Shown here piece after piece: positions 15,609 to 50,112 of a stretch of DNA of 64,000 nt. This stretch comes from an uncultured Eubacteriaceae bacterium (GTDB lineage: Bacteria; Bacillota; Clostridia; Eubacteriales; Garciellaceae), in the NCBI GenBank assembly GCA_964533275.1, contig CAZHJK010000011.1, positions 5,572-69,571 on the forward strand. The letters are read 5' to 3'. How positions within the stretch are numbered: position 1 is the stretch's first letter; every line of letters begins with the position of its first letter. The translations under genes were made by a program, and so were the position numbers. Below the pieces are notes generated by a model. It was given only the letters and a program-made list of their open reading frames with translations. It was not told the DNA's origin and did not search any database.

Positions 15609-15699
15609 TCCTCTAAGTAGAAGATTAACTATAGCATAATTATATATTAAAGATTCGCCATAATTCTTGTCTTTCCTTTAAAGTTCAAAAAAAGAAAAT

Positions 15700-15715
15700 G
15701 GGGACGGTGACTTTT
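15700..15715 (+). repeat. Copy of the dispersed GGGGACGGTGACTTT (REP-like) element
   Basis: ggggacggtgactttt, in the divergent intergenic region between the GH operon and the response regulator gene. Confidence 0.8.
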
Positions 15716-15831
15716 GTATACAAATTTTACCAGTTGGATACTATGATTTCGGTATTTATATTTGAGTAGTAGTATATATTTGTTAATTTTTCATTTTATG
15801 ACATAATGTCTTATAAAGAGGAGGCAGAAAA

Positions 15832-20243: not shown

Positions 20244-20259
20244 ATGGTGAGAATAAAAA

Positions 20260-20297
20260 GGGATGGTGACTATTATATACCAATAGGTCACCGTCCC
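20260..20297. repeat. Inverted doublet of the REP-like element forming a hairpin between convergent genes (likely bidirectional terminator)
   Basis: gggatggtgac - 15 nt - gtcaccgtccc. Immediately followed by a perfect 14-nt tandem duplication, ccctatttgtttat x2 (20295-20322). Confidence 0.75.
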
Positions 20298-20318
20298 TAT
20301 TTGTTTATCCCTATTTGT

Positions 20319-22918: not shown

Positions 22919-23533
22919 TTAAGGTTGTTCTAATTGATTTGCCAAAGCTTGTCCCCATGCATCTTCTGCTGCTCCACCTTCAGCTTGTATTGCATCTGAT
23001 AGTACTTCAAGCTGGAAGCTAGACCATAGGTCAATATCTGAAACCTCTACACTTTCAAGGAGTATAGCTGTCTTAATACCTGGCTGCACGATGTCTATGT
23101 GGTAGAAGTATCCATTGTCGAAAATCCAGTTGCTATCCCATCCGTCTATAAGATGTAATGTTATAGTGCCGTCGTCTGGAGATGTTATGGTTACTATATT
23201 GCTACTTGGGTCTAGGGACATATTACCAGCTAATGTTCCTTCATTTGTTCTAAAGGTAGGTACTAGCATAACTCGGATGTAGGCGTCTACCTCATGGGGA
23301 TTATTTACATTTAGTACTTCAACTATTTTACTTGTAACATCTTCATCAGGTGTAAGTATTTCCGTGTTATCTGAATCCTCATTATTTTCAATGATTGTTG
23401 TGGTGAGGACTCCAGGTACAAAGGAATTTACTTTCGCTTGGCTTTCAGTAGAAAGTAAGGCATAGGTTGCACCTGTCATAGCTAGGATAACAACTAATAC
23501 ATATGAAATGATTATAATAGTTTTTTTATTCAT
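22919..23533 (-). CDS. TasA/camelysin-family protein with a SipW-dependent-type signal peptide (paralogue 1)
   Basis: MNKKT...TGATYALLSTESQAKVNSF. C-terminal AIQAEG. TAATG overlap with the upstream vWA gene. Confidence 0.8.
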   Translation of the reverse strand: MNKKTIIIISYVLVVILAMTGATYALLSTESQAKVNSFVPGVLTTTIIENNEDSDNTEILTPDEDVTSKIVEVLNVNNPHEVDAYIRVMLVPTFRTNEGTLAGNMSLDPSSNIVTITSPDDGTITLHLIDGWDSNWIFDNGYFYHIDIVQPGIKTAILLESVEVSDIDLWSSFQLEVLSDAIQAEGGAAEDAWGQALANQLEQP

Positions 23534-25800
23534 TAGTTGTCACCTCCTATAAATTTGTTTATTACCCAATCAATGCTGGTAAGCCATTTTATGGGTTTTG
23601 ATTTATTTTCAAAGCTAGTCACTGCAAGATCTTTATTGATATCATGGTCACCATTTTCATCCATTCCAAGAGTATCACTAATTAGTACGGCTCCCACTGG
23701 ATCGTATTGCCATGACCAGTCTGTTTTTTCTTCTACCTCATAATATCCCTTTGGTAGATTAATAATTTCTCTAGTTTCAGTTGAACCATTAATTACTCTT
23801 ATGGTTTCGTAGAAGGTCTTTACTAGAGTTGTCTTTCCCATATCTTCGAATTGCTTAATCTCAAAGACAAAGGTCTGATTAGGATCATGCTGCCCCTCAC
23901 CATCATCAATTGTCTTTTTAATGGTCAGAGTACCTGGGATTACAATTACAGTATAGGTGCCTTCAACTATTTTTTCTGTTGCTAATGTTCCAACTGCTGG
24001 ATGATAGGTATCATCGGGATTAACTATATAATCTATTGGTGTTGCTGTGATAGTAAGATCATAATCTGTAGTATTTTCTGGTTTATCATTATCTGCGTAA
24101 TCTGGATCCCAAGTGTAATCTAGCATTCCGTTTGGATAGTCGTAGTTGACTAATTCCTCCTCTATCATTTCGCCTTGTGCTGTTGACTTACTACGAGGGA
24201 TACCTTCTCCTAGGAATATGGTATCTTCTATATCTGTAATGTTCAGCTTAAAGGGCACATTTACCAATGGATTTGGGAAGCTACCAACTTTAATTTCATC
24301 ATCTTCTTGATTTATTACATATACAGCTGAAATATTTTTAATATTAGTTGGGATATTATTGCCTCCAATAAAGTCTGGTTTAGGTTTTATATAAAGACTA
24401 CCTTGAAAAACTACTTCATCTCCTGCTCCTTCAGAAGTTTCTGGAGCAATCATCTGTGGGGGCCACTCCATATACACCCCATTAGTATCAGTTTTTAAGG
24501 TCCCGGTGTTATTACCAATAGTAAGTGTATCTCCAATATCTAACACATTTCCTTCATCATCTACAACATCAAATCTTTGATCAATATAATCTCTTACAAC
24601 TGCATTTTCTAGTGTTTCACCTAATTGCTCTGAGATTTCTCCAAAGATGTCACTTAAGCCTTGGAAGGTATCTGTAGTTTTATAATGATTTTCGCTTCCG
24701 TTTGGAAGTGGATCATTTGGTACGGGACTAAAGCCACCTGGCAACGTTCCAGGATATGGATTATTACTAGATACATTCCACATATGTGGATCTAAAGCAT
24801 TAGCCTTATCATATATTCCTATAGTATAAATGATTGTGCCATGTATACCTTTAAGGCTATCAGCAAAACCATATTCACTACTCCCATTACCCCAATTAGA
24901 ATGACCAGCTATTAGTAAGACATAGCGTGGGCGAGTGGGTGAACCTAGGGAATTGAATTTACTTAAGGCTACAGATAAACCATTATCTACAGCAACTCGA
25001 CTGCTAGGGTTAAAAGCATCTATTTCATTTTCTAAATCTGTTTTTTGAGTACCTACGGTTAACCAATCTGTAGAGGTTGTCCCACTGGGTTTAGAGTTTA
25101 TGACTACCATTTTGCTGGTAGGAGCGATTTGTGCTAAGTTATCCACAAAATCTTTAGCTGCTGTCTTTAAACCATTTTCTACAGTATTATCGCCTGAAGA
25201 CATATCCATATTGCCATTTAAACTACTAGAATTATCTAAGATTAGAACTATGTCTCCAGCTCCATCACTTGTTACAATATTAGAAGTTGCTTCTGCAGTT
25301 AGATCAATTTTAAATATTTGTCTTCCATCAGCATCTGAAGCACCAAATACACTAGCTGTTTTACTTAGTATTAAGCCGTTTTCTTCCGGGTCAACATATT
25401 CTAATGGTTCAGATGAATTAATTTGCATTATAGATTGTAAAATGGGAAAACCAAATGTTGAGTATGGTTTCCAAACCTCTTGTTCTTCTTTCTTTATTTC
25501 TTCTTCTTGAGTTTGCATGTCGGAATTTTCAATAGGAATTTCTTCATTATCTTCCTCTGGATCTTCAACAATTTCTTCTTCTGGGAGATTCTCTATAGGA
25601 GATGAATTTTCAGGTTCTTCTTCTAGATTTTCTTCCTCAGGTTCAGTTAATTGTGATGATATTTCATTTAATGGACTATCTGTTTCCTGTGCTATAGCTA
25701 CTAATGAAGAGGTTCCCAATGATATAAGTAGTAACAATGTTGTAACTATGCTAGTAATTTTTTTGTAATTTACTAATTTCTTGAACTTTCTAAATTTCAT
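23533..25800 (-). CDS. Secreted von Willebrand factor A (vWA) domain protein with an acidic linker and a C-terminal Cna-B/prealbumin-like domain (candidate tip adhesin)
   Basis: Signal/TM at the N-terminus and a Glu-rich region. MIDAS DxSxS (ILDNSSS). C-terminal GYYEVEEKTDWSWQY-type fold motif. No LPXTG. AGGAAGGTGG RBS. Confidence 0.75.
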   Translation of the reverse strand: MKFRKFKKLVNYKKITSIVTTLLLLISLGTSSLVAIAQETDSPLNEISSQLTEPEEENLEEEPENSSPIENLPEEEIVEDPEEDNEEIPIENSDMQTQEEEIKKEEQEVWKPYSTFGFPILQSIMQINSSEPLEYVDPEENGLILSKTASVFGASDADGRQIFKIDLTAEATSNIVTSDGAGDIVLILDNSSSLNGNMDMSSGDNTVENGLKTAAKDFVDNLAQIAPTSKMVVINSKPSGTTSTDWLTVGTQKTDLENEIDAFNPSSRVAVDNGLSVALSKFNSLGSPTRPRYVLLIAGHSNWGNGSSEYGFADSLKGIHGTIIYTIGIYDKANALDPHMWNVSSNNPYPGTLPGGFSPVPNDPLPNGSENHYKTTDTFQGLSDIFGEISEQLGETLENAVVRDYIDQRFDVVDDEGNVLDIGDTLTIGNNTGTLKTDTNGVYMEWPPQMIAPETSEGAGDEVVFQGSLYIKPKPDFIGGNNIPTNIKNISAVYVINQEDDEIKVGSFPNPLVNVPFKLNITDIEDTIFLGEGIPRSKSTAQGEMIEEELVNYDYPNGMLDYTWDPDYADNDKPENTTDYDLTITATPIDYIVNPDDTYHPAVGTLATEKIVEGTYTVIVIPGTLTIKKTIDDGEGQHDPNQTFVFEIKQFEDMGKTTLVKTFYETIRVINGSTETREIINLPKGYYEVEEKTDWSWQYDPVGAVLISDTLGMDENGDHDINKDLAVTSFENKSKPIKWLTSIDWVINKFIGGDN

Positions 25801-25895: not shown

Positions 25896-26000
25896 TAAAA
25901 AAGCTGCCAAATATATTTGGCAGCTGAACCGTCGTAGTATAAATACCTTAGACTTCAAACTTTGCGTCCTTATCTTTCGATAAGTTTGCCTTTATCAAAT
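25896..26000 (-). promoter_or_regulatory. c-di-GMP-I (GEMM-I) riboswitch, operon-proximal copy, with its own intrinsic terminator
   Basis: The minus strand reads AAAGGCAAACUUAUCGAAAGAUAAGGACGCAAAGUUUGAAGUCUAAGG...ACGACGGUUCAGCUGCCAAAUAUAUUUGGCAGCUUUUUU. GGCAAAC, the GAAA tetraloop hairpin, GGACGCAAAG and UCUAA match the Vc2-type consensus. Confidence 0.8.
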
Positions 26001-26088: not shown

Positions 26089-26197
26089 AAAAACCAAAAG
26101 CTGCCAAAATTAATTTGGCAGCTGAACCGTCATAGTACAAGACTTTAGACTTCGAGCTTTGCGCCCTTATCTTTCGATAAGTTTGCCTTTGTCAAAT
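26089..26197 (-). promoter_or_regulatory. c-di-GMP-I (GEMM-I) riboswitch, distal copy, with its own intrinsic terminator
   Basis: Second ~100-nt copy (GGCAAACUUAUCGAAAGAUAAGGGCGCAAAGCUCGAAGUCUAAAG...CAGCUGCCAAAUUAAUUUUGGCAGCUUUUGGUUUUUU). Differences from the proximal copy fall mostly in loops or stem positions. Confidence 0.8.
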
Positions 26198-26387
26198 AAG
26201 TAGTATTTAATTCTTACTAAATATATCTATTTACTATGCTTAGGAATATATATACACTGGAAATTTTTGTTTAAACACAATTTTTATTAGTTATTAAGTT
26301 AACAAGTTTTATTTTGGACTGACACAAATGTATGTATGTGGTAATATAATATAAATAACTCTTTGTTTCTTTATGAAAATAAAAACA

Positions 26388-26505
26388 AACTGAACAGGCG
26401 ATGGACGCTTTTGCGTTTCATAGTGGCCGGGCTATCATATGATAGCAGCAGATGATATTTACATCTGTGGGACAGAATTAATATTGTTCCATAGATGTTT
26501 TTTAT
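26388..26505 (+). promoter_or_regulatory. NiCo (czcD-motif) riboswitch with an overlapping terminator
   Basis: CUGAACAGGCGAUGGACGC...CAUAGUGGCCGGGC...GCAGCAGAUGAUAUUUACAUCUGUGGGACAG matches my recollection of the czcD motif. The terminator acatctgtgggaca / tgttccatagatgt + TTTTTT shares its 5' arm with the aptamer's 3' end. A CDF gene lies downstream. Confidence 0.7.
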
Positions 26506-26574: not shown

Positions 26575-27477
26575 ATGAAAAAAGAAAATCAACAATTTAA
26601 TAATCAGCAAATTGCAATGAGGATATCAACAGCCACTATTATTGTTAATCTAGTGCTATCAATATTAAAGTTTTTTGCGGGAATATTAGCTAATTCAGGA
26701 GCAATGATATCAGATGCAGTTCATTCAGCATCAGATGTATTCAGTACATTTATTGTAATTATAGGAGTAAATATTTCTAATAAAAAGTCAGATGAGAAGC
26801 ATCAATATGGGCATGAACGGTTAGAATGTGTTGCAGCTATTATATTAGCAATTATTTTATTAGCTACTGGAATAGGCATAGGGCTTAACGGACTGAATAA
26901 AATTTTTAATAAAAATTATGGAAAGCTTCTGATTCCAGGGCTTTTAGCATTAATTACGGCAATAGTATCTATTATTATAAAAGAATGGATGTATTGGTAT
27001 ACAAGGGCAGCTGCTAAAAGGATTAATTCTGGTGCTCTTATGGCAGATGCTTGGCACCACCGTTCTGATGCACTGTCATCAGTAGGTAGTTTTATTGGTA
27101 TTTTTGGTGCTAGACTTGGGTTTCCTATTCTTGATCCAATCGCCAGTGTTATTATATGTTTATTTATTGGTAAAGCAGCATTTGATATTTTTAAGGATTC
27201 TATAGAAAAATTAGTAGATAAATCCTGTAATGAAGAAGTTGTTAAGTTAATGAGGAAGGTAATTTTAGAGCAAGAGGGAGTACTTGGTATTGATGAAATA
27301 AAAACCAGAATGTTTGGTTCAAAAGTATATGTTGATATTGAAATTGCTGCTGATGGAAGCAAATCACTAAATGATACCCATGACATTGCAGAAGCAGTTC
27401 ATAACTCCATTGAAAAGGAGTTTTCAATGGTTAAACATTGTATGGTACATGTAAACCCTAGAGATTACAGGAAATAA
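26575..27477 (+). CDS. Cation diffusion facilitator (CDF) family divalent-metal efflux transporter
   Basis: 6 TM with metal-site motifs (SDAVHSASD, HHRSDALSS) and a C-terminal cytoplasmic domain. GGAGG RBS. Confidence 0.9.
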   Translation: MKKENQQFNNQQIAMRISTATIIVNLVLSILKFFAGILANSGAMISDAVHSASDVFSTFIVIIGVNISNKKSDEKHQYGHERLECVAAIILAIILLATGIGIGLNGLNKIFNKNYGKLLIPGLLALITAIVSIIIKEWMYWYTRAAAKRINSGALMADAWHHRSDALSSVGSFIGIFGARLGFPILDPIASVIICLFIGKAAFDIFKDSIEKLVDKSCNEEVVKLMRKVILEQEGVLGIDEIKTRMFGSKVYVDIEIAADGSKSLNDTHDIAEAVHNSIEKEFSMVKHCMVHVNPRDYRK

Positions 27478-39648: not shown

Positions 39649-39766
39649 GGGAATACCCCCTATTATTCAGATACTTAACATTTTATGCTAAAAGATTGTT
39701 AATGTTACATAAAGCTTTCTAAAATAGTAGGGCAGTTTATAATCCTAATATAGGAGATATGAAATT

Positions 39767-40738
39767 TCAGTCACCGTCCCCTTGAGGAAACTTTTCAAGA
39801 AACCTTATTTTTATATCTATTAGTTCTTCTAAGGAGTATAGATACCTATTAAGGGCAATTCTGTTTTTTAATTGCTTATGGGATGTTGGTAATGGAGCTT
39901 CATTAAAGTGATTTTTTATTTCTTCTAAACGATTTACGCGTGTAGAGCAGTCTATAATGGTATTATCTTCTAGAAAACTATAGGTAAAGGATTTTAATAG
40001 TTGCACTTCCCTTTGATTTAAAAATTTAATCTTTAAAAACTCTTGCATGGATTTAATGATATAATACTGTTGTTTTCTCATTACAAAATATTCTACATAA
40101 TAATCATTATTTTGAAGGTAATAGCTATTTAAATATTTATAGGATCTATTCTTTGCAATCGATAGTATTTGGTTTACTTTTTTTAGTTGGGCTTTAAGAT
40201 CTTTGATATTACATTCATTAATTAGGCATAATCCCATATTTTTAAAGATTGTAGAAAAGGCACTTTCCACTTGTTTTTGATAACCTATAAGTTCTTTTTC
40301 AATATCCAAAACAAAATAATTAAATACTAGTGCAACTAAAATCCCTAAAAACATAAGTAAAAATTCGTTTAATAATATGGGGAAGGTTATTTCTCTCAAA
40401 GAATAAATATGCATAACTAATACCACATTTAGAACAATAGCAATCTTCATATCAAATCTATACATTAAGAAGGTAAATATAAAGACATATATCGTAAAGA
40501 CCCATAGATAAAAACCAAAGGATAAAAACAAGACACTGGCAAGTGTAAAGGAAACAATAGCAGCTAATAACCTGATTCCGGCTAGCTTAAAGGATTGTTT
40601 TTTAGCAGACAACATACTAACAATTACGATGGTTCCAGCTGATTCATAAAAGTTAATATTTAAAGCTTGTGTTAATAATATTGCTACAAAGACCCCCGCA
40701 GCCATTTTCAAACTGATGATAAACTCTTCTTTAACCAC
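39767..40738 (-). CDS. Aromatic-acid-exporter/FUSC-like membrane protein
   Basis: Five N-terminal TM helices plus a helical cytoplasmic C-domain. GTG start with an AAGGGGA RBS. The last four codons plus the stop (GDGD*) are supplied by a REP-like copy. Confidence 0.6.
   Translation of the reverse strand: MVKEEFIISLKMAAGVFVAILLTQALNINFYESAGTIVIVSMLSAKKQSFKLAGIRLLAAIVSFTLASVLFLSFGFYLWVFTIYVFIFTFLMYRFDMKIAIVLNVVLVMHIYSLREITFPILLNEFLLMFLGILVALVFNYFVLDIEKELIGYQKQVESAFSTIFKNMGLCLINECNIKDLKAQLKKVNQILSIAKNRSYKYLNSYYLQNNDYYVEYFVMRKQQYYIIKSMQEFLKIKFLNQREVQLLKSFTYSFLEDNTIIDCSTRVNRLEEIKNHFNEAPLPTSHKQLKNRIALNRYLYSLEELIDIKIRFLEKFPQGDGD
39770..39781 (-). repeat. REP-like element copy (minus orientation)
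   Basis: gtcaccgtcccc. Confidence 0.75.
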
Positions 40739-40813: not shown

Positions 40814-40910
40814 ATCAACATTTAGGGACGGTGACTTTATTCTCCAAGAAATCAACATTTAGGGACGGTGACTTTCAACATTTAGGGACGGTGACTTTAT
40901 TCTCCAATAT
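40814..40910 (+). repeat. Three tandem REP-like copies
   Basis: caacatttagggacggtgacttt occurs three times (cores at 40825, 40862 and 40885). The first and third copies extend with attctccaa. Confidence 0.9.
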
Positions 40911-41082
40911 TTACCAAAAAGGTTATAAATTTTATTCTAATGCAATAAAATAATACTTGATTCCACTTATTCATTTAATAAATGTTCTAATCGGAATTGT
41001 TGGTTGTTACCTTTTAATAATATTAAATTTTCTGTACAATAAAAGAAGCACACAAAATGGGATAAGTAGGAGGGGATATGAA

Positions 41083-42330
41083 ATGATTGAAATAATTAAA
41101 AATATACTATTGAACAATGATATAAATGAAAATGTAGCATTTTATTTATCTAATGCAATAGCAGTAATACTAATAATTATAATTAGTTTAATAGTTAATT
41201 ATATAGTTAAGAAAGTTCTTCTAAAATACTTAAATGCCTATGCCGTAAAAACTAAAAACAAGTGGGATAATATTCTAATGGAGAAAAAGGTGTTTGATAG
41301 ACTGGCTAGTATTGTACCTGCAGGTATTATACATGCTTTTGCACCAGCTTTTCCTACATATCAATTATGGATCCAAAGAATTGCCTTTTCATATATAGTT
41401 TTAATTATATTATTATCAATAAACAGGTTATTAGATGCTATAAACCACATATATACAAGGCATGAGGTTTCAAAATCTAGACCTATTAAAGGATATCTTC
41501 AGGTTATAGAAATCGTTGTATATACTATTGGAATTGTTTTTATAATAAGTGTTTTAATAGATCGTTCTCCTTGGCTTTTATTAAGTGGGATAGGCGCTGC
41601 TACTGCTGTACTTATGCTTATTTTTCAAAATTCAATACTGGGACTTGTCGCCAGCATTCAGATTTCATCTAATAATTTGCTACGGATTGGGGATTGGATA
41701 GAGATGTCTAAATTTGGTGCAGATGGTGATGTTTTAGAAATATCCTTACATACGGTAAAGGTGCAAAACTGGAATAAAACAATTGTTACGATACCAACCC
41801 ATTTACTTTTATCAGAATCCTTTATAAATTGGAGGGGAATGCTAGAATCAGGTGGTAGGAGAATAATGAGATCTATATACATTGATATTAATAGTATTAA
41901 ATTCTGTGATGAAATAATGCTAAAGCGATTTGAAGAAATAGATTATATCAGAGAAGATATCCAAAATAAGAAGAAAGAAATAGAAGCATATAACAAAAAA
42001 CAAGATGTAAGTAATTCACAAGTTAATGGAAGAAACCTAACTAATATTGGGGTTTTTAGAATTTATATAGAGAATTATTTAAGAAATCATCCTGGTGTAA
42101 ATCAAGATTTACTTAAGATGGTAAGGCAGCTTGAACCTACTGAAAAGGGTCTGCCCATACAAATATATGTTTTTACAAATGTAGTACAATGGGATAAGTA
42201 TGAAGCTATACAATCGGATATATTTGAACATTTATTAGCTGTTGCACCAGAATTTGGTCTTAGGATTTATCAAGGACCTTCAGGTTATGATTTTAATAAA
42301 ATAGAAGTAATGTCAAACAATAATAAATAA
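41083..42330 (+). CDS. MscS-family mechanosensitive channel
   Basis: TM3-beta domain signature IGDWIEM...GDVLEISLHTVKVQNWNKTIVTIP. The start is moved to ATG 41083 after AGGAGGGG. Confidence 0.85.
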   Translation: MIEIIKNILLNNDINENVAFYLSNAIAVILIIIISLIVNYIVKKVLLKYLNAYAVKTKNKWDNILMEKKVFDRLASIVPAGIIHAFAPAFPTYQLWIQRIAFSYIVLIILLSINRLLDAINHIYTRHEVSKSRPIKGYLQVIEIVVYTIGIVFIISVLIDRSPWLLLSGIGAATAVLMLIFQNSILGLVASIQISSNNLLRIGDWIEMSKFGADGDVLEISLHTVKVQNWNKTIVTIPTHLLLSESFINWRGMLESGGRRIMRSIYIDINSIKFCDEIMLKRFEEIDYIREDIQNKKKEIEAYNKKQDVSNSQVNGRNLTNIGVFRIYIENYLRNHPGVNQDLLKMVRQLEPTEKGLPIQIYVFTNVVQWDKYEAIQSDIFEHLLAVAPEFGLRIYQGPSGYDFNKIEVMSNNNK

Positions 42331-42339
42331 TAGTCATCT

Positions 42340-42371
42340 GGGGACGGTGACTTTATTCTCCAATATATTCC
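42340..42371 (+). repeat. REP-like element copy, long form
   Basis: ggggacggtgactttattctccaatatattcc. Confidence 0.9.
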
Positions 42372-42499
42372 AGCTGATAGATTTATTTAATTAATAAAAT
42401 TCTCTAGTTGACTTATAAGGTGGGAAAATGACAAATCATCTTTACAATATAAGTAAATAGTGATAAATACTTTTCATATTATTGTTAGGAGGGTTTTAT

Positions 42500-42793
42500 G
42501 TGAGAAAACAGGATGAAATGGAAAATATGAATATGCTTTTATCTGCTCGAAATGCATTTATTATTTCTATTATACTAATTTTTTCATATATGATTTATTC
42601 AATGATAAAGGGCGAATATAAGAGAGAAATTGTAATTATGTTTAACATTATGTTTTTTAGCTTTACGGGGTCTTCAACCTACTATGCCAATAAATGGCAG
42701 GGAAAAGGTTTCTTTCGTGCTATTTTACCTGTGGCTCTTATTGTGCTTATAACAGCACTTGTCATTTTATTTGTTATGTGGATGTTGAGATGA
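42500..42793 (+). CDS. Small 3-TM membrane protein
   Basis: GTG start 6 nt after AGGAGGG. Its stop overlaps (ATGA) the start of the XRE gene. Confidence 0.6.
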   Translation: MRKQDEMENMNMLLSARNAFIISIILIFSYMIYSMIKGEYKREIVIMFNIMFFSFTGSSTYYANKWQGKGFFRAILPVALIVLITALVILFVMWMLR

Positions 42794-42987
42794 AAAATAA
42801 TATAAAAATTCAACGAACAATAAAGAATCTAACACAGACAGATTTGGCAAAAATGTGTGATGTTTCTAGACAGACTATAAATGCTATTGAAAATGATCGC
42901 TATGACCCCACCATATCTCTTGCTTTTAAATTATCTAAGGTTTTAGATGTTACAGTAGACCAATTGTTTGATCCTATTGAATGTTGA
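42790..42987 (+). CDS. XRE-family HTH transcriptional regulator (65 aa)
   Basis: LTQTDLAKMCDVSRQTINAIENDRYDPT HTH. The listed ORF is trimmed to the ATG that overlaps the upstream stop. Confidence 0.85.
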   Translation: MKNNIKIQRTIKNLTQTDLAKMCDVSRQTINAIENDRYDPTISLAFKLSKVLDVTVDQLFDPIEC

Positions 42988-43011
42988 ATGCAAAATTAGT
43001 AGATATATAAG

Positions 43012-43113
43012 GCCAGGGACACAGTATACCCATAAAAGATCTTGTTAAGCAGTACGATTTTACTGAAAATAGCATTAGAAGAATTATTAAGGCACACAAA
43101 ACACAAGACAAAT
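43012..43113 (+). pseudogene. Remnant 3' end of an HTH-containing gene
   Basis: Only ...IPIKDLVKQYDFTENSIRRIIKAHKTQDK* remains open. A stop codon lies directly upstream and there is no start or RBS. Confidence 0.35.
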
Positions 43114-43121
43114 AAAAATTA

Positions 43122-43158
43122 AAGATACTTGATTCTAAAAATGATCAAGTATTTTTAT
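43122..43158 (+). terminator. Rho-independent terminator
   Basis: atacttgat / atcaagtat, followed by ttttatt. Confidence 0.6.
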
Positions 43159-43277
43159 TAGTAAAAAATCAATAATACAGAAATGATTCTGTTTACCAGA
43201 GAATTTGCGTTAATGGTATTATTATTATAAATGGATAAGTGAGTATGCAATAGTAGGAAAGAGTAGGAGGTAGTTAA

Positions 43278-43886
43278 TTGAATAAAGTCAGTACTCTAAA
43301 AGTCAGGTTTAAATGATGATAAAAATACGATTTATCCTGTAATAAAATAATTATAACTCACCACGATTTCGATCATATGGGATCTTTGGCAGCATTTAAA
43401 AGAAAGTACCCTTCTATAAAAGTAGTAGCATCCATAGATGATAAAGAATATATCAATGGAAGTAAAAAATCACTAAGACTACAACAAGCAGAGTCTATAT
43501 ATGACTCTTTACCAGAAGGAGAAAAAGAAAGTGCAAAAACTTTTCATAGAATACTTAAATCAATAGAGCCCTGTAATGTAGATATATGCGTGAAAGACAA
43601 GGATTTTTTTGATTACTGTGGAGGTATAGAAATAATTTCTACTCCAGGACATATGCCAGGACATATTTCAATTTACATTAAATCTACATTAATTGCTGGA
43701 GATGCATTAGTTTTTGAAAATGATGAAACTTACTATTCCAAATCCACAGTATACATTAGATATGAATGAGGTAAAAAATCAATTGTAAAATTATTAGATT
43801 ATGAAATAGATAGTGTTATTTGCTATCATGGTGGCATTTGTAATAAGGGTATTAAAAATTCACTAAGAGAAATTGTTTCAAGTTGA
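43278..43886 (+). pseudogene. Decayed MBL-fold hydrolase gene (frameshifts plus N-terminal deletion)
   Basis: AGGAGG-TTG start (LNKVSTLKVRFK*) runs into stops. THHDFDH is in a second frame. The C-terminus (KLLDYEIDSVICYHGG...) is in yet another frame after the listed ORF stops at 43769. Confidence 0.75.
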
Positions 43887-44000
43887 TATGGGACAATTGG
43901 GAAGTATGAAGTCGAGGTAGCAAGTTATGAACTCAGGACGCTATATGAATGGCACGCAAGCCTATGGATGGCCTTTTTAATAATCTTCAACTTTATTTTG

Positions 44001-44029
44001 TTGACTTATTGTATTCATTATTGTATAAT
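44001..44029 (+). promoter_or_regulatory. Near-consensus sigma-A promoter of the C-M-DUF262-HEPN operon
   Basis: TTGACT (44001-06), 17 nt, TATAAT (44024-29). A 9-nt direct repeat ttattgtat lies at 44006-14 and 44018-26. Confidence 0.7.
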
Positions 44030-44034
44030 TTAAA

Positions 44035-44283
44035 ATGGGTGATAGTATGGATGCATTACAGATATTTTCACATAATTTGAAGAAGTTAAGAATCCAAAAA
44101 GGATTTTCCCAAAAAGAAATTGCTGAAATTTCGGGGTTACATCGCACTTATATTAGTGCAATTGAATGTGGCAAACGTAGTATTGCTCTAGATAATGTGC
44201 AAAAAATAGCAGATGCTTTAGGTGTACAGCCTTATCAACTGTTTTTGATAAATAATAATAACACCAAAACTAAGGAGGTGTAG
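44035..44283 (+). CDS. Controller (C) protein-type XRE HTH regulator of a restriction-modification-like operon
   Basis: KLRIQKGFSQKEIAEISGLHRTYISAIECGKRSIALDNVQKIADALG resembles C-protein HTHs. ATG 44035 lies 6 nt after the -10 (possibly leaderless). ATG 44047 is the alternative. Confidence 0.7.
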   Translation: MGDSMDALQIFSHNLKKLRIQKGFSQKEIAEISGLHRTYISAIECGKRSIALDNVQKIADALGVQPYQLFLINNNNTKTKEV

Positions 44284-44285
44284 CT

Positions 44286-45347
44286 GTGCCCTGTTCAATA
44301 GTTGATTTATTCTGTGGTGTCGGAGGTTTAACCAAAGGGCTTGAGCTTGCTGGCTTAAATGTTGTTGCAGGTATAGACATTGACGATAGTTGCAGTTTTG
44401 CTTATGAGCAAAATAACAATGCAAGATTTGTTCAGGGTGACATTACCGATATTGATATACAATCTGTTTTAGAATTGTTTCCAGAGGGTGATATGCGGAT
44501 ATTAGTAGGATGTGCTCCGTGTCAGCCATTCTCAAAATATACTCAACGCTATCGTAAAGATGGACAAAAGGATGATAAATGGAAATTATTATACTCCTTT
44601 TCCAATATTGTAAATGAGTTAAGACCTACCGTAGTTTCAATGGAAAATGTTCCAGAATTGGCAAAGGAGTCTGTTTTTAATGATTTTGTTAAGAGTTTAG
44701 AAAAATTGGGTTATTATTGTTCTTGGTCAATAGCATATTGTCCAGACTATGGTGTACCACAAAAACGCAAACGTCTTGTACTATTAGCGTCACTTTTGGG
44801 CGAGATAACTCTTATTCCTGCATTATATAATTCGGAAAATTATCAAACAGTACGAGATGCTATTGGAATGTTACCAGCTTTGAGAAGTGGGGAGATAAAT
44901 GATAATGACCCTATTCACTGTTCAACTAAGATGTCTTCTATAAATATAGAAAGAATACAACAATCTGTACCAAATGGTACATGGAGAGACTGGGAAGAAC
45001 ATTTAAAATTACCTTGTCATAAGAAAAAAACGGGTAAAAGCTATGGTGCTGTGTATGGTCGTATGGGATGGGATGAACCATCACCGACTATAACAACTCA
45101 ATTTTATGGATACGGAAATGGACGTTTCGGTCATCCTGAACAAGATAGAGCTCTTTCTTATAGAGAGGGTGCTCTTTTACAATCATTCCCGCCGGGATAT
45201 ATATTCATAAATAGAGATGAACCTTTTAACAGGCGTCAATTAGGAATCCACATTGGTAACGCTGTTCCTGTAGAATTAGGGCGTGCTATTGGTTTAAGCA
45301 TTACTCAGCATTTACAAGAAATGGGGGTGGAAATTCATGGCGAATGA
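44286..45347 (+). CDS. DNA (cytosine-5)-methyltransferase
   Basis: Motif I DLFCGVGG, IV GCAPCQPFS, VI MENVP, VIII QKRKR, X GNAVPV. GTG start after AAGGAGGTG. Confidence 0.9.
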   Translation: MPCSIVDLFCGVGGLTKGLELAGLNVVAGIDIDDSCSFAYEQNNNARFVQGDITDIDIQSVLELFPEGDMRILVGCAPCQPFSKYTQRYRKDGQKDDKWKLLYSFSNIVNELRPTVVSMENVPELAKESVFNDFVKSLEKLGYYCSWSIAYCPDYGVPQKRKRLVLLASLLGEITLIPALYNSENYQTVRDAIGMLPALRSGEINDNDPIHCSTKMSSINIERIQQSVPNGTWRDWEEHLKLPCHKKKTGKSYGAVYGRMGWDEPSPTITTQFYGYGNGRFGHPEQDRALSYREGALLQSFPPGYIFINRDEPFNRRQLGIHIGNAVPVELGRAIGLSITQHLQEMGVEIHGE

Positions 45348-46392
45348 TATAACAGATGTTAAACGAAAAGAAGGGGAGGAACAAATTAAAGAATTGAGAA
45401 AAGAGATAGACTATGATACTCGTGATTATTCTATTGATTTTCTTGTTCAGCAGTATAGAGAAGATGAATTCTATATACCAGATGAATATCAAAGAAAATA
45501 TATTTGGGAAGATGCTAATAAGACCAGATTTATTGAATCTATATTATTGGGACTCCCCATCCCTTTTATGTTTTTCTCTGATACAGATGATGGTCGTTGT
45601 GAAATCATTGATGGAGCACAAAGAACACAAACCTTGGTTGAATTTATGGATAATGAATTAAAACTGGTTAACCTGAAAAAGCTTTCTGCACTTAATAATT
45701 TTACCTATTCAGATTTACCTGAGTATTTCAAGAGAAAATTCAATAAGACGACTATGAGAATAATCGTTCTTTCTGATGAAACTACTATAGAAATTCGTCA
45801 AGAAATATTTAACAGAATTAACACTACTGGGGTTCCGGCTCGTCCTAGTGAAATTCGTAGGGGTAGTTATGCAGGATCTTTTATGAATTTTCTTAAAGAA
45901 TGCACAGAGAATCCTGTGTTTATGCGTGTTTGTCCTGTAAGCAAAATATCTAAAAAAAGATACGAAGACTTAGAGTTAGTATTGAGGTTCTTTGCGTTTA
46001 TAAATAATTATAAATCTTTTGTACACAGAGTTGATGAGTTTTTGGATAGCTATGTTGAAAGTATTCAAGATGATTTTGATAAAACCGCATTTCAGCAAGA
46101 ATTTGAAAACATGCTAAACTTTGTAGATAAACACTTTGACTACGGATTTAGAAAAACAAAAAATGCAAAATCCACTCCTAGAGTTCGGTTTGAAGCTATT
46201 GCTGTGGGGGTTGGTTTAGCGTTAAGAGAAAAACCAAACTTAGTTCCAGCATCTATGGATTGGCTTGAAAGTAAAGAATTCAAAATCCACACAACGACTC
46301 ATGCCAGTAACTCTCAAGCACGAGTATCTGGGCGTATCGAATATGTGAGGGATGCTCTGTTGGCAGGTGATGAAAATGCAAGCAACGATTGA
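45337..46392 (+). CDS. DUF262 (ParB/Srx-fold, GmrSD-N-like) protein without a fused nuclease domain
   Basis: IPDEYQRKYIW ... CEIIDGAQRTQTL (DGQQR-type motif). 11-nt overlap with the methyltransferase gene. Confidence 0.75.
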   Translation: MANDITDVKRKEGEEQIKELRKEIDYDTRDYSIDFLVQQYREDEFYIPDEYQRKYIWEDANKTRFIESILLGLPIPFMFFSDTDDGRCEIIDGAQRTQTLVEFMDNELKLVNLKKLSALNNFTYSDLPEYFKRKFNKTTMRIIVLSDETTIEIRQEIFNRINTTGVPARPSEIRRGSYAGSFMNFLKECTENPVFMRVCPVSKISKKRYEDLELVLRFFAFINNYKSFVHRVDEFLDSYVESIQDDFDKTAFQQEFENMLNFVDKHFDYGFRKTKNAKSTPRVRFEAIAVGVGLALREKPNLVPASMDWLESKEFKIHTTTHASNSQARVSGRIEYVRDALLAGDENASND

Positions 46393-47068
46393 CACCTTTA
46401 ATGAACGTATAGCCGAATTAGATTTATACTATTCTGCATTAGATCAGCTATATCTATCAAAGATAACTCCTAATAGCGGTGAAAGATATTTAGAAGATGA
46501 CTTTTTAAAGATATTAAAATCTAATGCCTTACTTATGAATTATAACCTTGTAGAATCCACAATTATGGGTGGTATTCTAGAAATATATGCTGAATTAGGC
46601 CAGCATGGGATAACATATAAAATGGTTCGCCGAGAAATACAAGATATTTGGTTTTCTTTCAAATTCAATCAAGTCTATGATAAAAATGCGCATTATCACT
46701 CATATCGGGACAAGGCATCCGAGATTATAACTTCCATTTTATCTGATGATACATTAGCTTTAGATAGAAAGACAACCGATTTTAGCGGAAATTTAGACGC
46801 TGATAAAATCCGAATTATTTGTCAAGACCACGGAATCCACTTTAATTTAGACAGAAAATGCCGAGGGGGTATAGTTTTATCGGATGTCAAAGACAAAAGG
46901 AATAACCTTGCTCATGGCACTATTTCATTTGTAGAATGTGGTCGTGACTATTCAATTGAAGATCTTACTAAAATAAAAAATGAAACTGTATTTTTTCTTA
47001 AAGATATTCTCAATGGGATGAAAGAATATTATGACGACAAGCTTTATCTATCTGCATCAAATCAATAG
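46370..47068 (+). CDS. HEPN-like protein (Rx4H motif), MAE_28990-like by recollection
   Basis: KDKRNNLAHGTISF near the C-terminus, in an all-helical-looking sequence. Start is ATG 46370 or 46376, inside the 3' end of the DUF262 gene. Confidence 0.6.
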   Translation: MKMQATIDTFNERIAELDLYYSALDQLYLSKITPNSGERYLEDDFLKILKSNALLMNYNLVESTIMGGILEIYAELGQHGITYKMVRREIQDIWFSFKFNQVYDKNAHYHSYRDKASEIITSILSDDTLALDRKTTDFSGNLDADKIRIICQDHGIHFNLDRKCRGGIVLSDVKDKRNNLAHGTISFVECGRDYSIEDLTKIKNETVFFLKDILNGMKEYYDDKLYLSASNQ

Positions 47069-47223
47069 AAAAAAGTATAGAATATGGGGTCAGAGAATAT
47101 GGGATCTTGAATTATTTTTAGAATTAGAAGTAGGAGCAGAATATATATCCCTACTCTCTTCTTATCTAAAACTTAAAGATAATAGTAAGAAGTAAATATG
47201 TTATAGAATTATTTCCAAAGAAA

Positions 47224-47647: not shown

Positions 47648-49093
47648 ATGAGGATACAAGATATACTTAGAACTATACAAAATAATTTCTATATAGCATT
47701 CATATTGATTGTTATATTAGCAGTACTTTTAGGATTTGGATATTTTATAATATACAAGAAGTTTTTAAAGGGAAATAAAAAGTTTAGTAAGCGAAAGGTT
47801 TTTATTTTGTTTTGCCTTATTGGATATATAATTATGGTTATAGGAGTTACATTTCTAAATAGAGGTGTTAGAATATATGGTGATACAAATCTTCATTTGT
47901 TTAGTTCATATAAAGAAGCTTGGAACTCTTTTAATTCTACAACTTGGAGATTTATTATATTAAATATATTTATGTTGGTTCCTCTTGGGATACTACTTCC
48001 ACTGCTAAATAAGAGGTTTTGTAAATTCCGCTGGATATTTGGGGCGACATTTCTAATGACATTGATAATAGAAACAATTCAACTTATAACAGGATACGGG
48101 ATATTTGAATTAGATGATATATTTAATAATGTACTAGGAGCTATAATTGGATATGGAATTATTATGACGATTATAACTTTTATGGAAAATAGAAAAAGCA
48201 AGTTTAAAAAATCAATAATCTACCTTATTCCGTTGATATTAGTTATAGTTTCGTCTTTTGCAATAGTTGGAGTATATAATTCAAAAGAATTTGGTAATCT
48301 CTACATAGCGTATAATTATAAAATAAATATGAAAAATATAGAATTGAGTTTAAATACAGAAATAGACGAAACCCAAGAAGTATTTTTAAACAATGGTAAA
48401 TACAGTATAACAAAAATTCCAATATATAAGGCACCGATTTATGAAAAAGATAGCGGAAAAGAAGTCTTTATAAATTTCCTAAAGGATAAAGATATTAGTA
48501 AGGAGATAGAAGTGGATCCATACAATGATATGGCTATATATTGGTCAAGGGGAGAAATATCTTATAATATGTGGTTTGACTATAATGGTGGAACCTATAA
48601 CTATAGGGAATTTTCTTCTTTTGATGGTGATATAGAAAGGGCTAATACCGATGAAGGGAATTTATTAAAGGAATTAGAAAAGTTCAATATTATTATCCCA
48701 AAAGCAGCAGTTTTCAGTAAGGTAGATGATAGAAATGAAGATGGGATATATCAATGGTCAGTAGAAAACAATGTAGCTGGGGAATATATAACTAATGGAA
48801 ATTTAACTGTTGAATTCTATAGTGATGAAAGTATAAAGGATATAAGTAATAATATAATAAGATATAAAAAGGTAAAAGATGTATCCATTAAAAGTAAAGA
48901 GGAGGCATATAAAGAATTAAAACAAGGAAAATTTAATCTGTATAAGTCCGAAGATGTAAAAGCCATAGAAGTAGACAATATAAACCTTTCGTATATGCTG
49001 GACACTAAGGGCTTTTATCAGCCAGTATATAGTTTTGAATCAAGGATAGATGGAAGGGATGTAATCATATCAATTCCAGCACTACAGTTCTAG
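47648..49093 (+). CDS. VanZ-family membrane protein with a ~280-aa extracytoplasmic C-terminal domain
   Basis: VanZ-like core (NIFMLVPLGILLP...IETIQLITGYGIFELDDIFNNVLGAIIGY), a further TM, then a soluble domain. AAGGAG RBS. Confidence 0.7.
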   Translation: MRIQDILRTIQNNFYIAFILIVILAVLLGFGYFIIYKKFLKGNKKFSKRKVFILFCLIGYIIMVIGVTFLNRGVRIYGDTNLHLFSSYKEAWNSFNSTTWRFIILNIFMLVPLGILLPLLNKRFCKFRWIFGATFLMTLIIETIQLITGYGIFELDDIFNNVLGAIIGYGIIMTIITFMENRKSKFKKSIIYLIPLILVIVSSFAIVGVYNSKEFGNLYIAYNYKINMKNIELSLNTEIDETQEVFLNNGKYSITKIPIYKAPIYEKDSGKEVFINFLKDKDISKEIEVDPYNDMAIYWSRGEISYNMWFDYNGGTYNYREFSSFDGDIERANTDEGNLLKELEKFNIIIPKAAVFSKVDDRNEDGIYQWSVENNVAGEYITNGNLTVEFYSDESIKDISNNIIRYKKVKDVSIKSKEEAYKELKQGKFNLYKSEDVKAIEVDNINLSYMLDTKGFYQPVYSFESRIDGRDVIISIPALQF

Positions 49094-49138
49094 GGTATAC
49101 CTGTTATAAAATACACTTTAGTGGGTTAATGGTCATTT

Positions 49139-50004
49139 GGGGACGGTGACTTTATTATCCATTATATTCCAATTACTTTAGATTTACTTAAACCTGTGGA
49201 CTTGATTATCTGATTATTAGTTAATCCTTTTGATTTTAGTGTTTTTATAAGGAGAATTCTTTTTTCTACGCTAATTTCTCCTATAGCCTTGATGCCTTGT
49301 ATTCTCATTTCTGTATTGATTATTTCTTCAGCTTCTATATCCGTTCTTTTCACATTATCAATGTTAAGACAAATGGGTTCTAGTTCTTCCTTATTTAGTT
49401 CCTTTACAAACAGATCCACCGCTTTGATCTTATCATTATGTAACATATCTAAGAAAAATCTTGTATCGGTTAGGAAGCTCTTGTTAATATATTCGTGATA
49501 GCTAGACCACCTGTAATCTCTAGGATTCTCCACCACTTTTCCTTTAACTGGGTTATTTAAAATATATTTTAGTACCATAAAGAAATAAGAGTTTGTTTCT
49601 ACGCATTCACTTTTAAAGCGATCCTGAAAGAGATGTCCTACTCGATGATGCTGGTAGTTGTACCAAGCGGCATATTTTCCACAAATTTTCTTCATAATAA
49701 AACTGATTGATATTTCATTCTCTTTTATTAGAAAGTGTGCGTGATTATCCATTAAACAATAAGCATATAGTTCGAAGTTCGTTTCTTCTTTTGTATCTAG
49801 CATTATTTCTAAGAATTTATTTTTATCATTTTTGTCATCAAAAATAACTGCTCGATTAATTCCTCTTATCATAATATGATATGTCTCAGTTGTGCTTATC
49901 TTCCTGGCTGCTCTTGGCAATATCATCACTCCCCCTTTTAATAACAATAATAGCATTTATTACATAAAATTGCTATATATTAGGAGAAAAAAGTCACCGT
50001 CCCC
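49139..50004 (-). mobile_element. RAYT-like unit: Y1 transposase gene bracketed by inverted REP-like repeats
   Basis: ggggacggtgactttattatccattatattcc (49139-70) and its inverted counterpart atatattaggagaaaaaagtcaccgtcccc (49975-50004) flank the gene. Confidence 0.75.
49162..49926 (-). CDS. IS200/IS605-type Y1 (HUH) transposase, REP-associated (RAYT)-like, with a C-terminal HTH extension
   Basis: YHIMIRGINR, HUH motif DNHAHFLI, GHLFQDRF, YILNNP (catalytic Tyr region). The start is set at MILPRAAR after AAGGGGGAG. The stop codon lies inside the REP copy. Confidence 0.8.
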   Translation of the reverse strand: MILPRAARKISTTETYHIMIRGINRAVIFDDKNDKNKFLEIMLDTKEETNFELYAYCLMDNHAHFLIKENEISISFIMKKICGKYAAWYNYQHHRVGHLFQDRFKSECVETNSYFFMVLKYILNNPVKGKVVENPRDYRWSSYHEYINKSFLTDTRFFLDMLHNDKIKAVDLFVKELNKEELEPICLNIDNVKRTDIEAEEIINTEMRIQGIKAIGEISVEKRILLIKTLKSKGLTNNQIIKSTGLSKSKVIGI

Positions 50005-50112
50005 ATATGCCCTTTTAAAAATCTGTCCTTTTAATCCCCCTTAAATTTCTATATAATAAAGTAAGTAAATCGAACATATTGTTTGTTTTGTATTTTAGAA
50101 AGGGGTTACAAA

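Follow-up and report, generated by a model that had tools for sequence, protein, structure and literature searches.

We analyzed a 64-kb stretch of DNA from an uncultured Eubacteriaceae bacterium with a low-GC clostridial genome (64,000 nucleotides, hereafter the window), in which a gene for a Y1 (HUH) tyrosine transposase lies between inverted copies of a short repeat that recurs at other places in the window. The gene resembles those of transposases associated with repetitive extragenic palindromic sequences (REPs), i.e., REP-associated tyrosine transposases (RAYTs), and more closely those of a relative of these termed TIRYTs. Its neighbors are pcrA and a vanZ-like gene; no tnpB gene adjoins it and no second Y1 copy is present within the 64-kb window. 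Coordinates refer to the window unless another locus is named. The features of the locus are as follows, together with the evidence used to place them:

49162..49926, minus strand: Y1 (HUH) tyrosine transposase gene, RAYT/TIRYT type (sequence, Pfam, NCBIfam, homologue alignment, fold)
49477..49926, minus strand: catalytic Y1 core, residues ~1–150, with HUH residues H62/H64 and Y121 in YILNNP (Pfam, invariant columns, fold match to 4ER8)
49165..49380, minus strand: predicted C-terminal four-helix, helix-turn-helix (HTH)-like domain, residues ~183–254 (AlphaFold models, predicted local distance difference test [pLDDT] score 85–89)
49973..50010, minus strand: upstream ("left-end") repeat copy with the GGGGACGG tag outermost (sequence, core search, profile)
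49134..49172, plus strand: downstream ("right-end") repeat copy, inverted relative to the upstream copy and overlapping the stop and last codons of the Y1 gene (sequence, core search, profile)

The Y1 Transposase and Its Predicted Structure

Counted from its ATG, the open reading frame (ORF) at 49162–49926 on the minus strand encodes 254 amino acids. An upstream ATG at 49956 would give a protein of 264 amino acids and a TTG at 49920 one of 252; the TTG is favored because the consensus start of the homologues is MPRxAR. Pfam assigns residues 15–125 to Y1_Tnp (E = 4.5e-17). The HUH motif of the protein is NHAHFLI (H62-A-H64) and its catalytic tyrosine is Y121 in YILNNP (Y121-xxx-NP); H62, H64, Y121, and N125 are invariant across an alignment of 65 homologues. 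Judged by these HUH and tyrosine residues, the protein appears to be catalytically intact. Of the NCBIfam models, REP_Tyr_transpos (NF047646) scored 69.3 bits, under its cut-off of 80, and the IS200/IS605 model (NF033573) 22.6 bits, under its cut-off of 55. A first homologue search returned 1042 clusters of ~252 amino acids from Clostridia, Bacilli, and Negativicutes, nearly all found on one contig each; they are annotated as "transposase" or "REP element-mobilizing transposase RayT."

Structure prediction placed the protein nearest to the RAYTs. The AlphaFold (AF2) model, built on 65 sequences, has a mean pLDDT of 88.7, and the top Foldseek match among solved structures is TnpAREP of Escherichia coli with its REP hairpin (4ER8; E = 2.7e-8; TM score 0.71 for the target), followed by the TnpA proteins of IS608, ISDra2, and IS200 (E ~5e-5 to 1e-3). 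Likewise, 4ER8 was the only Y1 protein found when a sequence profile of the homologues was searched against the PDB (E = 6.2e-7), and the IS200-family TnpAs of the PDB gave no match to this profile. Beyond the core, the AF2 models predict a separate four-helix domain at the C-terminus. HTH_23 matches this domain below threshold in 6 of 12 homologues, and the domain had no significant match in Foldseek; a comparison with DnaA domain IV by hhalign, using an approximate query sequence, also gave no match. Because of these sub-threshold and missing matches, we term the domain HTH-like and no more. Its identification as DnaA domain IV is unsupported both by hhalign with the approximate query and by the fold search.

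Repeat Copies in the Window

The unit that brackets the Y1 gene in inverted orientation is ~38 bp long, starts with GGGGACGGTGAC, and carries the tag GGGGACGG. Positions 49139 and 50004 are the outer G of the two copies, GGGGACGGTGACTTTATTATCCATTATATTCC on the plus strand and GGGGACGGTGACTTTTTTCTCCTAATATATAG on the minus strand. When up to two mismatches were allowed, the 15-mer core of the unit gave eight matches in the window versus 0.04 expected, and none of 100 shuffles reached at least eight. A profile built from the copies returned ten units at seven loci, i.e., five loci besides the two gene flanks. These five were located by the core search and the profile, supplemented by folding for the doublet:

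42335..42372, plus strand: solo right-end-type copy, 5 bp past the end of ORF 40957..42330
40819..40916, plus strand: head-to-tail cluster of three right-end-type copies between divergent genes (40819–40854, 40856–40875 [partial], and 40879–40916, all plus strand)
39748..39781, minus strand: left-end-type copy at the 3' end of ORF 39767..40738
20260..20303, both strands: palindromic, REPIN-like doublet of two inverted tags between convergent genes (20260–20283, plus strand; 20285–20303, minus strand)
15696..15732, plus strand: solo copy between divergent genes

The layout therefore comprises singles, one inverted doublet, and one tandem cluster, and every copy lies between long ORFs or on a stop codon. 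The distribution is one-sided: copies are confined to 15.7–50 kb of the window, with none at 0–15.6 kb or 50–64 kb. Most copies can be matched to one of the two gene-flanking ends. Solo copies of the right-end type occur at 15700, 40824–40884, and 42340; they are oriented like the right end of the gene unit and include ATATTCCA, which codes for the last codons of the Y1 gene; the copy at 42335–42372 shares 34 of 42 bases with the 49139 copy, among them the ATATTCCA derived from these codons. The 39781 copy resembles the left end in both type and orientation. Its positions 39767–39781 make up the 3' end (four codons plus stop, G-D-G-D-stop) of the ArAE_1-family ORF 39767..40738 on the minus strand, the C-terminus of which was rewritten by insertion of the repeat.

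Hairpins are the usual substrate of Y1 enzymes. Single copies folded as single-stranded DNA were about as stable as their shuffles (z = −0.6 to +1.3), i.e., without a hairpin, and the doublet at 20255–20300 is the sole copy with a stable one (folding free energy −12.9 kcal/mol; z = −4.5). These results bear out in every detail what a first-pass annotation made from the sequence alone had described: a 254-residue, RAYT-like ORF with a Y1 HUH signature between inverted members of a dispersed repeat family found in intergenic regions or at gene ends, with a core that is not itself palindromic and hairpins arising only from doublets. The repeat is not restricted to the Y1 locus, given the five other loci in the neighboring 35 kb, and the C-terminal HTH tail that had been read from the sequence corresponds to the separate domain predicted above.

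We also searched the repeats for conventional regulatory functions. Rfam had no family on the repeats of the window or on those of two homologue loci (L122 and L123), the doublet at 20260–20303 gave no canonical terminator score, and promoter and terminator consensus scans of the flanking copies and the doublet gave matches not above those of shuffles; a promoter or terminator role of these copies was accordingly rejected. The GC skew places the Y1 gene on the lagging strand in the window and on the leading strand in Acetoanaerobium noterae, L122, and L123, so that a consistent link between element orientation and replication direction was also rejected.

These observations bear on the idea that the repeats are host sites, i.e., HTH operators, terminators, or nucleoid-structuring sites, spread by ordinary duplication and selection and recognized by a Y1 protein that acts as a non-recombining regulator. 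The predicted HTH-like domain would suit such a role, as would the strong fold of the doublet between convergent genes and the position of several copies in divergent promoter regions, but promoter- and terminator-like matches occur at shuffle frequency, copies overlap gene ends and stop codons, and the catalytic HUH and tyrosine residues are invariant in 65 homologues. The truncated tandem units and internally deleted elements described below are signs of recombination, and copy number varies between near-identical lineages. We consider the host-site explanation improbable.

Gene–Repeat Association Among Homologues

A metagenome scan with protein alignment gave 80 further loci, and 54 homologue loci had at least 150 bp on both sides of the gene. 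A GGGAC(A/G) or GGGGAC tag pointed outward on both flanks in 38 of these 54 loci, compared to 7 of 54 for the opposite orientation, which served as an internal control; the longest exact inverted match between the flanks contained GGGAC in 33 of the 54. The orientation bias and the inverted matches together indicate that the association of gene and repeat is family-wide and no accident of the window, and that a conserved GGGGAC(G/A)G tag regularly flanks the gene in the Firmicute branch. With few loci in a single window, chance adjacency might have been suspected, i.e., an unrelated short repeat located by coincidence on either side of an IS200-like gene; this is scarcely credible, excluded as it is by the outward tags at the homologue loci, and it also fits poorly with right-end copies that hold the 3' codons of the Y1 gene itself.

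Individual genomes illustrate the association. In Alkalibacter rhizosphaerae (45% identity), the Y1 gene lies between two perfect palindromic doublets, aaatGGGGACGGTGACTTTTTTGCAAAAAAGTCACCGTCCCCattt, with three more doublets within 20 kb. In Proteiniborus (42% identity), inverted GAGCCAA-GGGGACAGGAAC-TTTGGCTC units border the gene on either side and more copies lie nearby. Tag copies are also present at the Y1 homologue of Serpentinicella (65% identity), and the loci L209 and L210 are further examples of a Y1 gene flanked by tags. In Serpentinicella sp. ANB-PHB4 (L121), an IS3-family element with HTH_Tnp_1 and rve ORFs occupies 10847–12039, between the Y1 gene and the downstream tag copy.

The tag varies little across lineages: GGGGACGGTTCT is the commonest form, and GGGGACGGGGTT, GGGGACAGGT, and GGGGACGGTGAC also occur. 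In many lineages, it is enclosed by complementary arms whose sequence changes between loci, for example GGAGACA-GGGGACGGTTCTC-TGTCTCC and GTGTCAA-GGGGACGGGGTTGT-TGACAAC. Among 113 gene-flanking units, which have 42 distinct inner arms, 54 have the tag enclosed by a perfect stem of 6 bp or more, compared to 3.3% with shuffled flanks. A comparison of 42 distinct GGGACGGTTC units gave a similar picture: the 3' and 5' flanks of the same unit pair over at least 7 bp in ten cases, versus 1.2% of pairings when the 3' flanks are swapped. The GGGGACGGTGAC variant occurs with arms in metagenome-assembled genomes (MAGs) of Syntrophomonadaceae, Syntrophaceticus, Pelotomaculum, and Dethiobacter. When GTDB species genomes were scanned for RGGGACGGTGACTTT, the matches listed were mostly single chance hits, and some of them were loci in Firmicute MAGs with multiple copies and complementary arms. 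In the clade of the window (L208, L209, L210, and Alkalibacter), single units have no stem and consist of a bare terminal inverted repeat of ~38 bp. As the tag lies between complementary arms elsewhere, the non-palindromic unit is a feature of this clade and not of the family.

Two homologous proteins from Bacillus spp., P0091 and P0119, have the C-terminal ends ...GHGDRSLVPARKV and ...DRGTGSLSQ. Judged from their residues, these tails may arise where an ORF continues into a unit of the GGGGACAGGTCCC type, which would explain similar C-terminal peptides in annotated Bacillus proteins.

Turnover of Copies Between Close Relatives

The Y1 protein of the window was found on 18 metagenome contigs, each time between pcrA and the vanZ-like gene; four of these contigs (L204–L207) are 100% identical to the window. 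A sister lineage (L208; Logan SRR11702768) shares the vanZ neighbor and has a Y1 protein that is 94% identical, with 95–96% identity at the DNA level. Downstream of its Y1 gene (L208 865–1071), where the window has a single tag copy, this lineage has an additional ~140 bp and a total of three to four copies, tandem or partial. Copies therefore turn over between close relatives. On the upstream side, where the L208 flank is only 24 nt, homology to the window begins at GACGGTGAC, inside the tag. The ratio of nonsynonymous to synonymous divergence (dN/dS) between the window and L208 is 0.36 for the Y1 gene and 0.26 for a neighboring gene. Y1 homologues are rare on mobile records, with matches in 26 of 72,556 plasmids and in one phage record; one plasmid record has a Y1 match at three places.

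Truncated units recur directly upstream of a full unit in head-to-tail arrangement. They consist of the 5' arm, GGGGAC, and zero to six further bases, mostly zero or one:

L046 6643, L101 1085, L104 1607, L123 3411, L164 3696, L173 8001, L209 9831: truncated head-to-tail units, example loci

This clustering of the break points at the tag suggests a site-specific break and rejoining.

Internally Deleted and Regionally Clustered Copies in A. noterae

The 2.63-Mb record of A. noterae (NZ_CP154629.1) encodes a full-length homologue of 267 amino acids with 38% identity (L211 and L215; 350–442 kb). The record is filed as a plasmid in PLSDB, though it is chromosome-sized. The gene is flanked by AATCAtTA-GGGACGGTTCTTT-TTGATT units, and near it lie elements of ~110 bp in which the left end is joined to the right end through the final ~57 bp of the gene. 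Two of these elements (118-bp segments), when aligned with a 126-bp composite of the gene ends, are identical in 103–104 of 128–129 columns. By their composition, they are internal-deletion derivatives of the Y1 unit that resemble miniature inverted-repeat transposable elements (MITEs). The 110-bp MITE is present at 12 places in the record, and all of the MITEs are co-oriented with the gene. Copies cluster within ~70 kb of the Y1 gene: the 90 kb adjoining it contain 26 exact matches to GGGACGGTT, versus none in 150 kb sampled at 1.0, 1.6, and 2.2 Mb. The repeat family of A. noterae is regional rather than genome-wide.

Such derivatives raise the question of whether the unit is a still-autonomous, low-copy insertion sequence (IS), in which the inverted ends move together with the gene as a single element and the dispersed copies are solo-end or MITE relics that require neither domestication nor mobilization in trans. 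The A. noterae MITEs, being internal-deletion derivatives of the whole unit, speak for this, as do gene neighborhoods that differ among homologues at 60–68% identity, the few plasmid matches with one record bearing three places, and the assessment by Bertels et al. (2017; PMC5581495) that, of the RAYT groups, this branch (group 1) comes closest to an IS, having 6.3% duplicates as well as some copies on plasmids. An autonomous element is harder to reconcile with one copy in 64 kb and a single context in 18 contigs and a sister lineage with 95–96% identity, with a dN/dS that resembles that of the neighboring gene, with homologue clusters mostly on one contig each, and with full elements far fewer than solo ends and partial tandem units. 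On this balance, we regard an autonomous IS as unlikely, though less so than host sites or chance.

Relationship to Known RAYT and IS200/IS605 Systems

Published classifications provide a place for the window element. Di Nocera et al. (2013; PMC3733652) described RAYT-like genes with terminal inverted repeats instead of REPs, which they called TIRYTs and which lie in TIRtrons; the inverted repeats have GGGGWSAS in common and, in some species, belong to families of moderate abundance. Quentin et al. (2018; PMC6006769) equated TIRYTs with subclass 2.1 of TnpAY1 and with group 1 of Bertels (291 of 292 sequences), and described a C-terminal Bac_DnaA_C, HTH_23, or HTH_28 domain in this subclass. 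Bertels et al. (2017) divided RAYTs into groups 1–5, with abundant REPs in groups 2 and 3 only. Firmicutes are not mentioned by Nunvar et al. (2010).

We compared the window protein with the TIRYT and RAYT sequences in Additional file 5 of PMC3733652. BLASTP matched the protein to TIRYTs at E = 1e-23 to 1e-31 (25–34% identity) and to classical RAYTs at 1e-5 to 1e-9, and the homologue profile scored 103–150 bits against TIRYTs versus 33–53 bits against classical RAYTs. Among the BLASTP matches was the TIRYT "dau 2153," of which we take "dau" to be the KEGG code of the Firmicute Desulforudis audaxviator. The alignments with TIRYTs end at around residues 150–214, which indicates that the Firmicute clade has a C-terminal domain unlike the tails of proteobacterial TIRYTs. 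The consensus GGGGWSAS is matched at 7 of its 8 positions by the tag of the window, GGGGACGG, and at all 8 by GGGGACAG, a tag of its relatives. The window element is accordingly a Firmicute member of TIRYT/RAYT group 1/subclass 2.1, and neither a classical REP nor an ordinary IS200/IS605 element.

This assignment revises the first-pass annotation in two respects. Its proposal of a REP/RAYT-like system was right in kind, since the link between gene and repeat recurs across Firmicutes, but the system belongs with TIRYT/RAYT group 1 and not with the classical REPs. The system is also less novel than had been implied, because TIRYT ends with GGGGWSAS had already been described in 2013 (PMC3733652), including those of Desulforudis "dau 2153."

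The similarities with TIRYTs extend from the protein to the repeats. Both have a Y1 core with MPRxAR...H(V/I)xxRGNxR...YCLMxNHxHLL...Y(I)xxNP signatures, and exceed classical RAYTs in length through a C-terminal extension, which is of the HTH type in TIRYTs and a predicted HTH-like domain in the window protein. In both, the gene lies between terminal inverted repeats that start with a GGGG-rich tag, and the repeats form moderately abundant families of singles, dimers, and clusters, with ten copies in the 64 kb of the window. The tails differ: proteobacterial TIRYTs end in ..GRPxG....KRGRPRK, whereas the Firmicute proteins have ..LSIRQIxRxTGxS...

Classical REP/RAYT systems (E. coli TnpAREP with its REPs and bacterial interspersed mosaic elements; groups 2 and 3) likewise combine a single-copy Y1 gene with inverted, dispersed extragenic repeats; their REPINs are matched by the inverted-unit doublets, their genes are also rare on plasmids, and TnpAREP (4ER8) is the nearest solved structure. 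The window gene further behaves as a host gene in the manner of classical RAYTs, with one copy in the window, one context, a dN/dS near that of its neighbor, and few plasmid records. In contrast, the classical REP is a palindromic hairpin that follows GTAG, and the window unit is non-palindromic and lacks GTAG; in other Firmicute clades, the tag is placed between the arms rather than 5' of a hairpin. Classical RAYTs are also ~90 amino acids shorter and lack the extra domain, and the window protein falls under the REP_Tyr_transpos cut-off. Classical REPs, moreover, occur in high numbers across the genome, compared to ten copies in the 64 kb of the window and a regional family in A. noterae.

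IS200/IS605 elements (IS608 and ISDra2) share the Y1 HUH fold and catalytic residues with the window protein, and their deletion derivatives resemble the A. noterae MITEs, in which co-orientation with the master copy recalls strand-specific, single-strand transposition. They differ in having a TnpA of ~130–150 amino acids, often with tnpB, and multiple identical copies, compared to 254 amino acids, one copy, and no adjoining tnpB in the window. Their left end (LE) and right end (RE) are distinct hairpins on one strand, whereas the ends of the window element are true inverted repeats.

REPs with a CGTC tag were also considered, as the reverse complement of the tag contains CGTC, and were rejected: these have stems of 8–9 bp and loops of 4–5 nt, are mainly alphaproteobacterial, and lack a transposase. 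Full-text literature searches for the tag sequences returned no relevant paper. Compared to the TIRYT and RAYT papers discussed here, the present analysis adds that the GGGGAC(G/A)G tag is conserved throughout Firmicutes and lies between covarying arms in about one of every two units, that truncated units occur in tandem, and that copies cluster regionally with MITEs.

A Probable TIRtron-Like Unit and Its Possible Mechanism

The findings above are best explained if the window holds a REPtron-like "TIRtron": a single-copy chromosomal gene for an intact Y1 HUH transposase, from the RAYT branch that bears an HTH domain, with its own inverted, GGGGACGG-tagged ends, and with the other copies as non-autonomous units derived from these ends. 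We regard this as probable. The solo ends, the inverted doublet, and the tandem cluster of the window would all be such end-derived units.

How the units move can be modeled on related enzymes. TnpAREP acts on REPs in single-stranded form, which it cuts and recombines (PMC8266576). If the window protein works like this E. coli enzyme and the TnpAs of IS200/IS605, it would bind the tag on single-stranded DNA, and Tyr121 and a metal bound by the HUH motif would cleave the strand to form a 5'-phosphotyrosine link. A free 3'-OH could then resolve this link onto another tag-bearing strand, such that units are copied or moved in trans. The C-terminal HTH-like domain might add DNA binding, possibly to duplex DNA. 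More speculatively, the break points of the truncated units would place the cut in or just 3' of GGGGAC, and the clustering in A. noterae would suit a spread mostly over short distances.

Several points weigh against the TIRtron interpretation. No member of the TIRYT/RAYT group 1 branch is known to have been characterized biochemically, and none of the subclass 2.1 genes had REP-like sequences in their vicinity according to Quentin et al. (2018; PMC6006769). The single copies lack the hairpin of a typical Y1 substrate, and the searches with the C-terminal domain returned neither a significant fold match nor a DnaA match. The tags are on opposite strands at the two ends, unlike the LE and RE of IS200/IS605 and unlike the recognition of REP versus inverted REP (iREP), which is awkward for a strand-specific Y1 enzyme; with tags on opposite strands and units without hairpins, the ends of the window fit neither the IS608 nor the E. 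coli TnpAREP model. Finally, copies were counted within the 64-kb window, and the regional clustering in A. noterae together with the one-sided pattern in the window suggest that the genome-wide spread proposed for the source organism may be wrong.

A broader reading, which we put forward tentatively and consider possible rather than likely, is that Firmicutes harbor a widespread and hitherto uncharacterized type of REP-like element in which a near-invariant GGGGAC(G/A)G tag, placed in the loop of a lineage-variable hairpin or in a bare terminal repeat, is read by an HTH-bearing RAYT, cut in or just 3' of the tag, and moved in short-range hops. Cleavage would then resemble that of Rep-type nickases at origin hairpin loops, in contrast to the foot-of-hairpin cleavage of IS200/IS605 and TnpAREP. 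Hints in this direction come from the pairing of arms within the same unit, from breaks 0–6 nt after GGGAC (mostly 0–1), and from the regional, co-oriented copies in A. noterae.

Among domesticated bacterial transposases that sustain a population of short repeats, RAYTs with their REPs have been studied most, and to our knowledge nearly all of this work concerns two proteobacterial groups. Group 1/subclass 2.1/TIRYT is the largest RAYT group, and one survey reported it to be without associated repeats. Across the window and 54 related loci, a conserved tag regularly brackets the gene, and end-derived units multiply and turn over, as is evident from the tandem gains between lineages of 95–96% identity and from the A. 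noterae MITEs. The 38-nt unit and the Y1 protein offer a defined pair of substrate and enzyme for cleavage and strand transfer. For annotation, the family would account for recurrent short repeats in Clostridia and Bacilli and for odd ORF tails, such as ...GDRSLVP, where genes read into the repeat unit.

Other Features of the Window

A block at ~42400–47100 resembles a defense island. It contains small HTH genes, a DNA methylase (44286–45347), GmrSD_N/DUF262 (45337–46392), and HEPN_MAE_28990 (46352–47068), as assigned by Pfam, and is bounded on one side by the repeat at 42335–42372 and on the other by the Y1 locus, past the vanZ-like gene at 47648–49093. Three riboswitch aptamers were also detected. 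Two tandem c-di-GMP-I aptamers on the minus strand (25916–26000 and 26114–26197; 79.8 and 75 bits) lie upstream of a 755-residue ORF at 23533..25800 on the same strand, and a nickel/cobalt (NiCo) aptamer on the plus strand (26380–26477; 58.3 bits) lies upstream of the ORF at 26575..27477.

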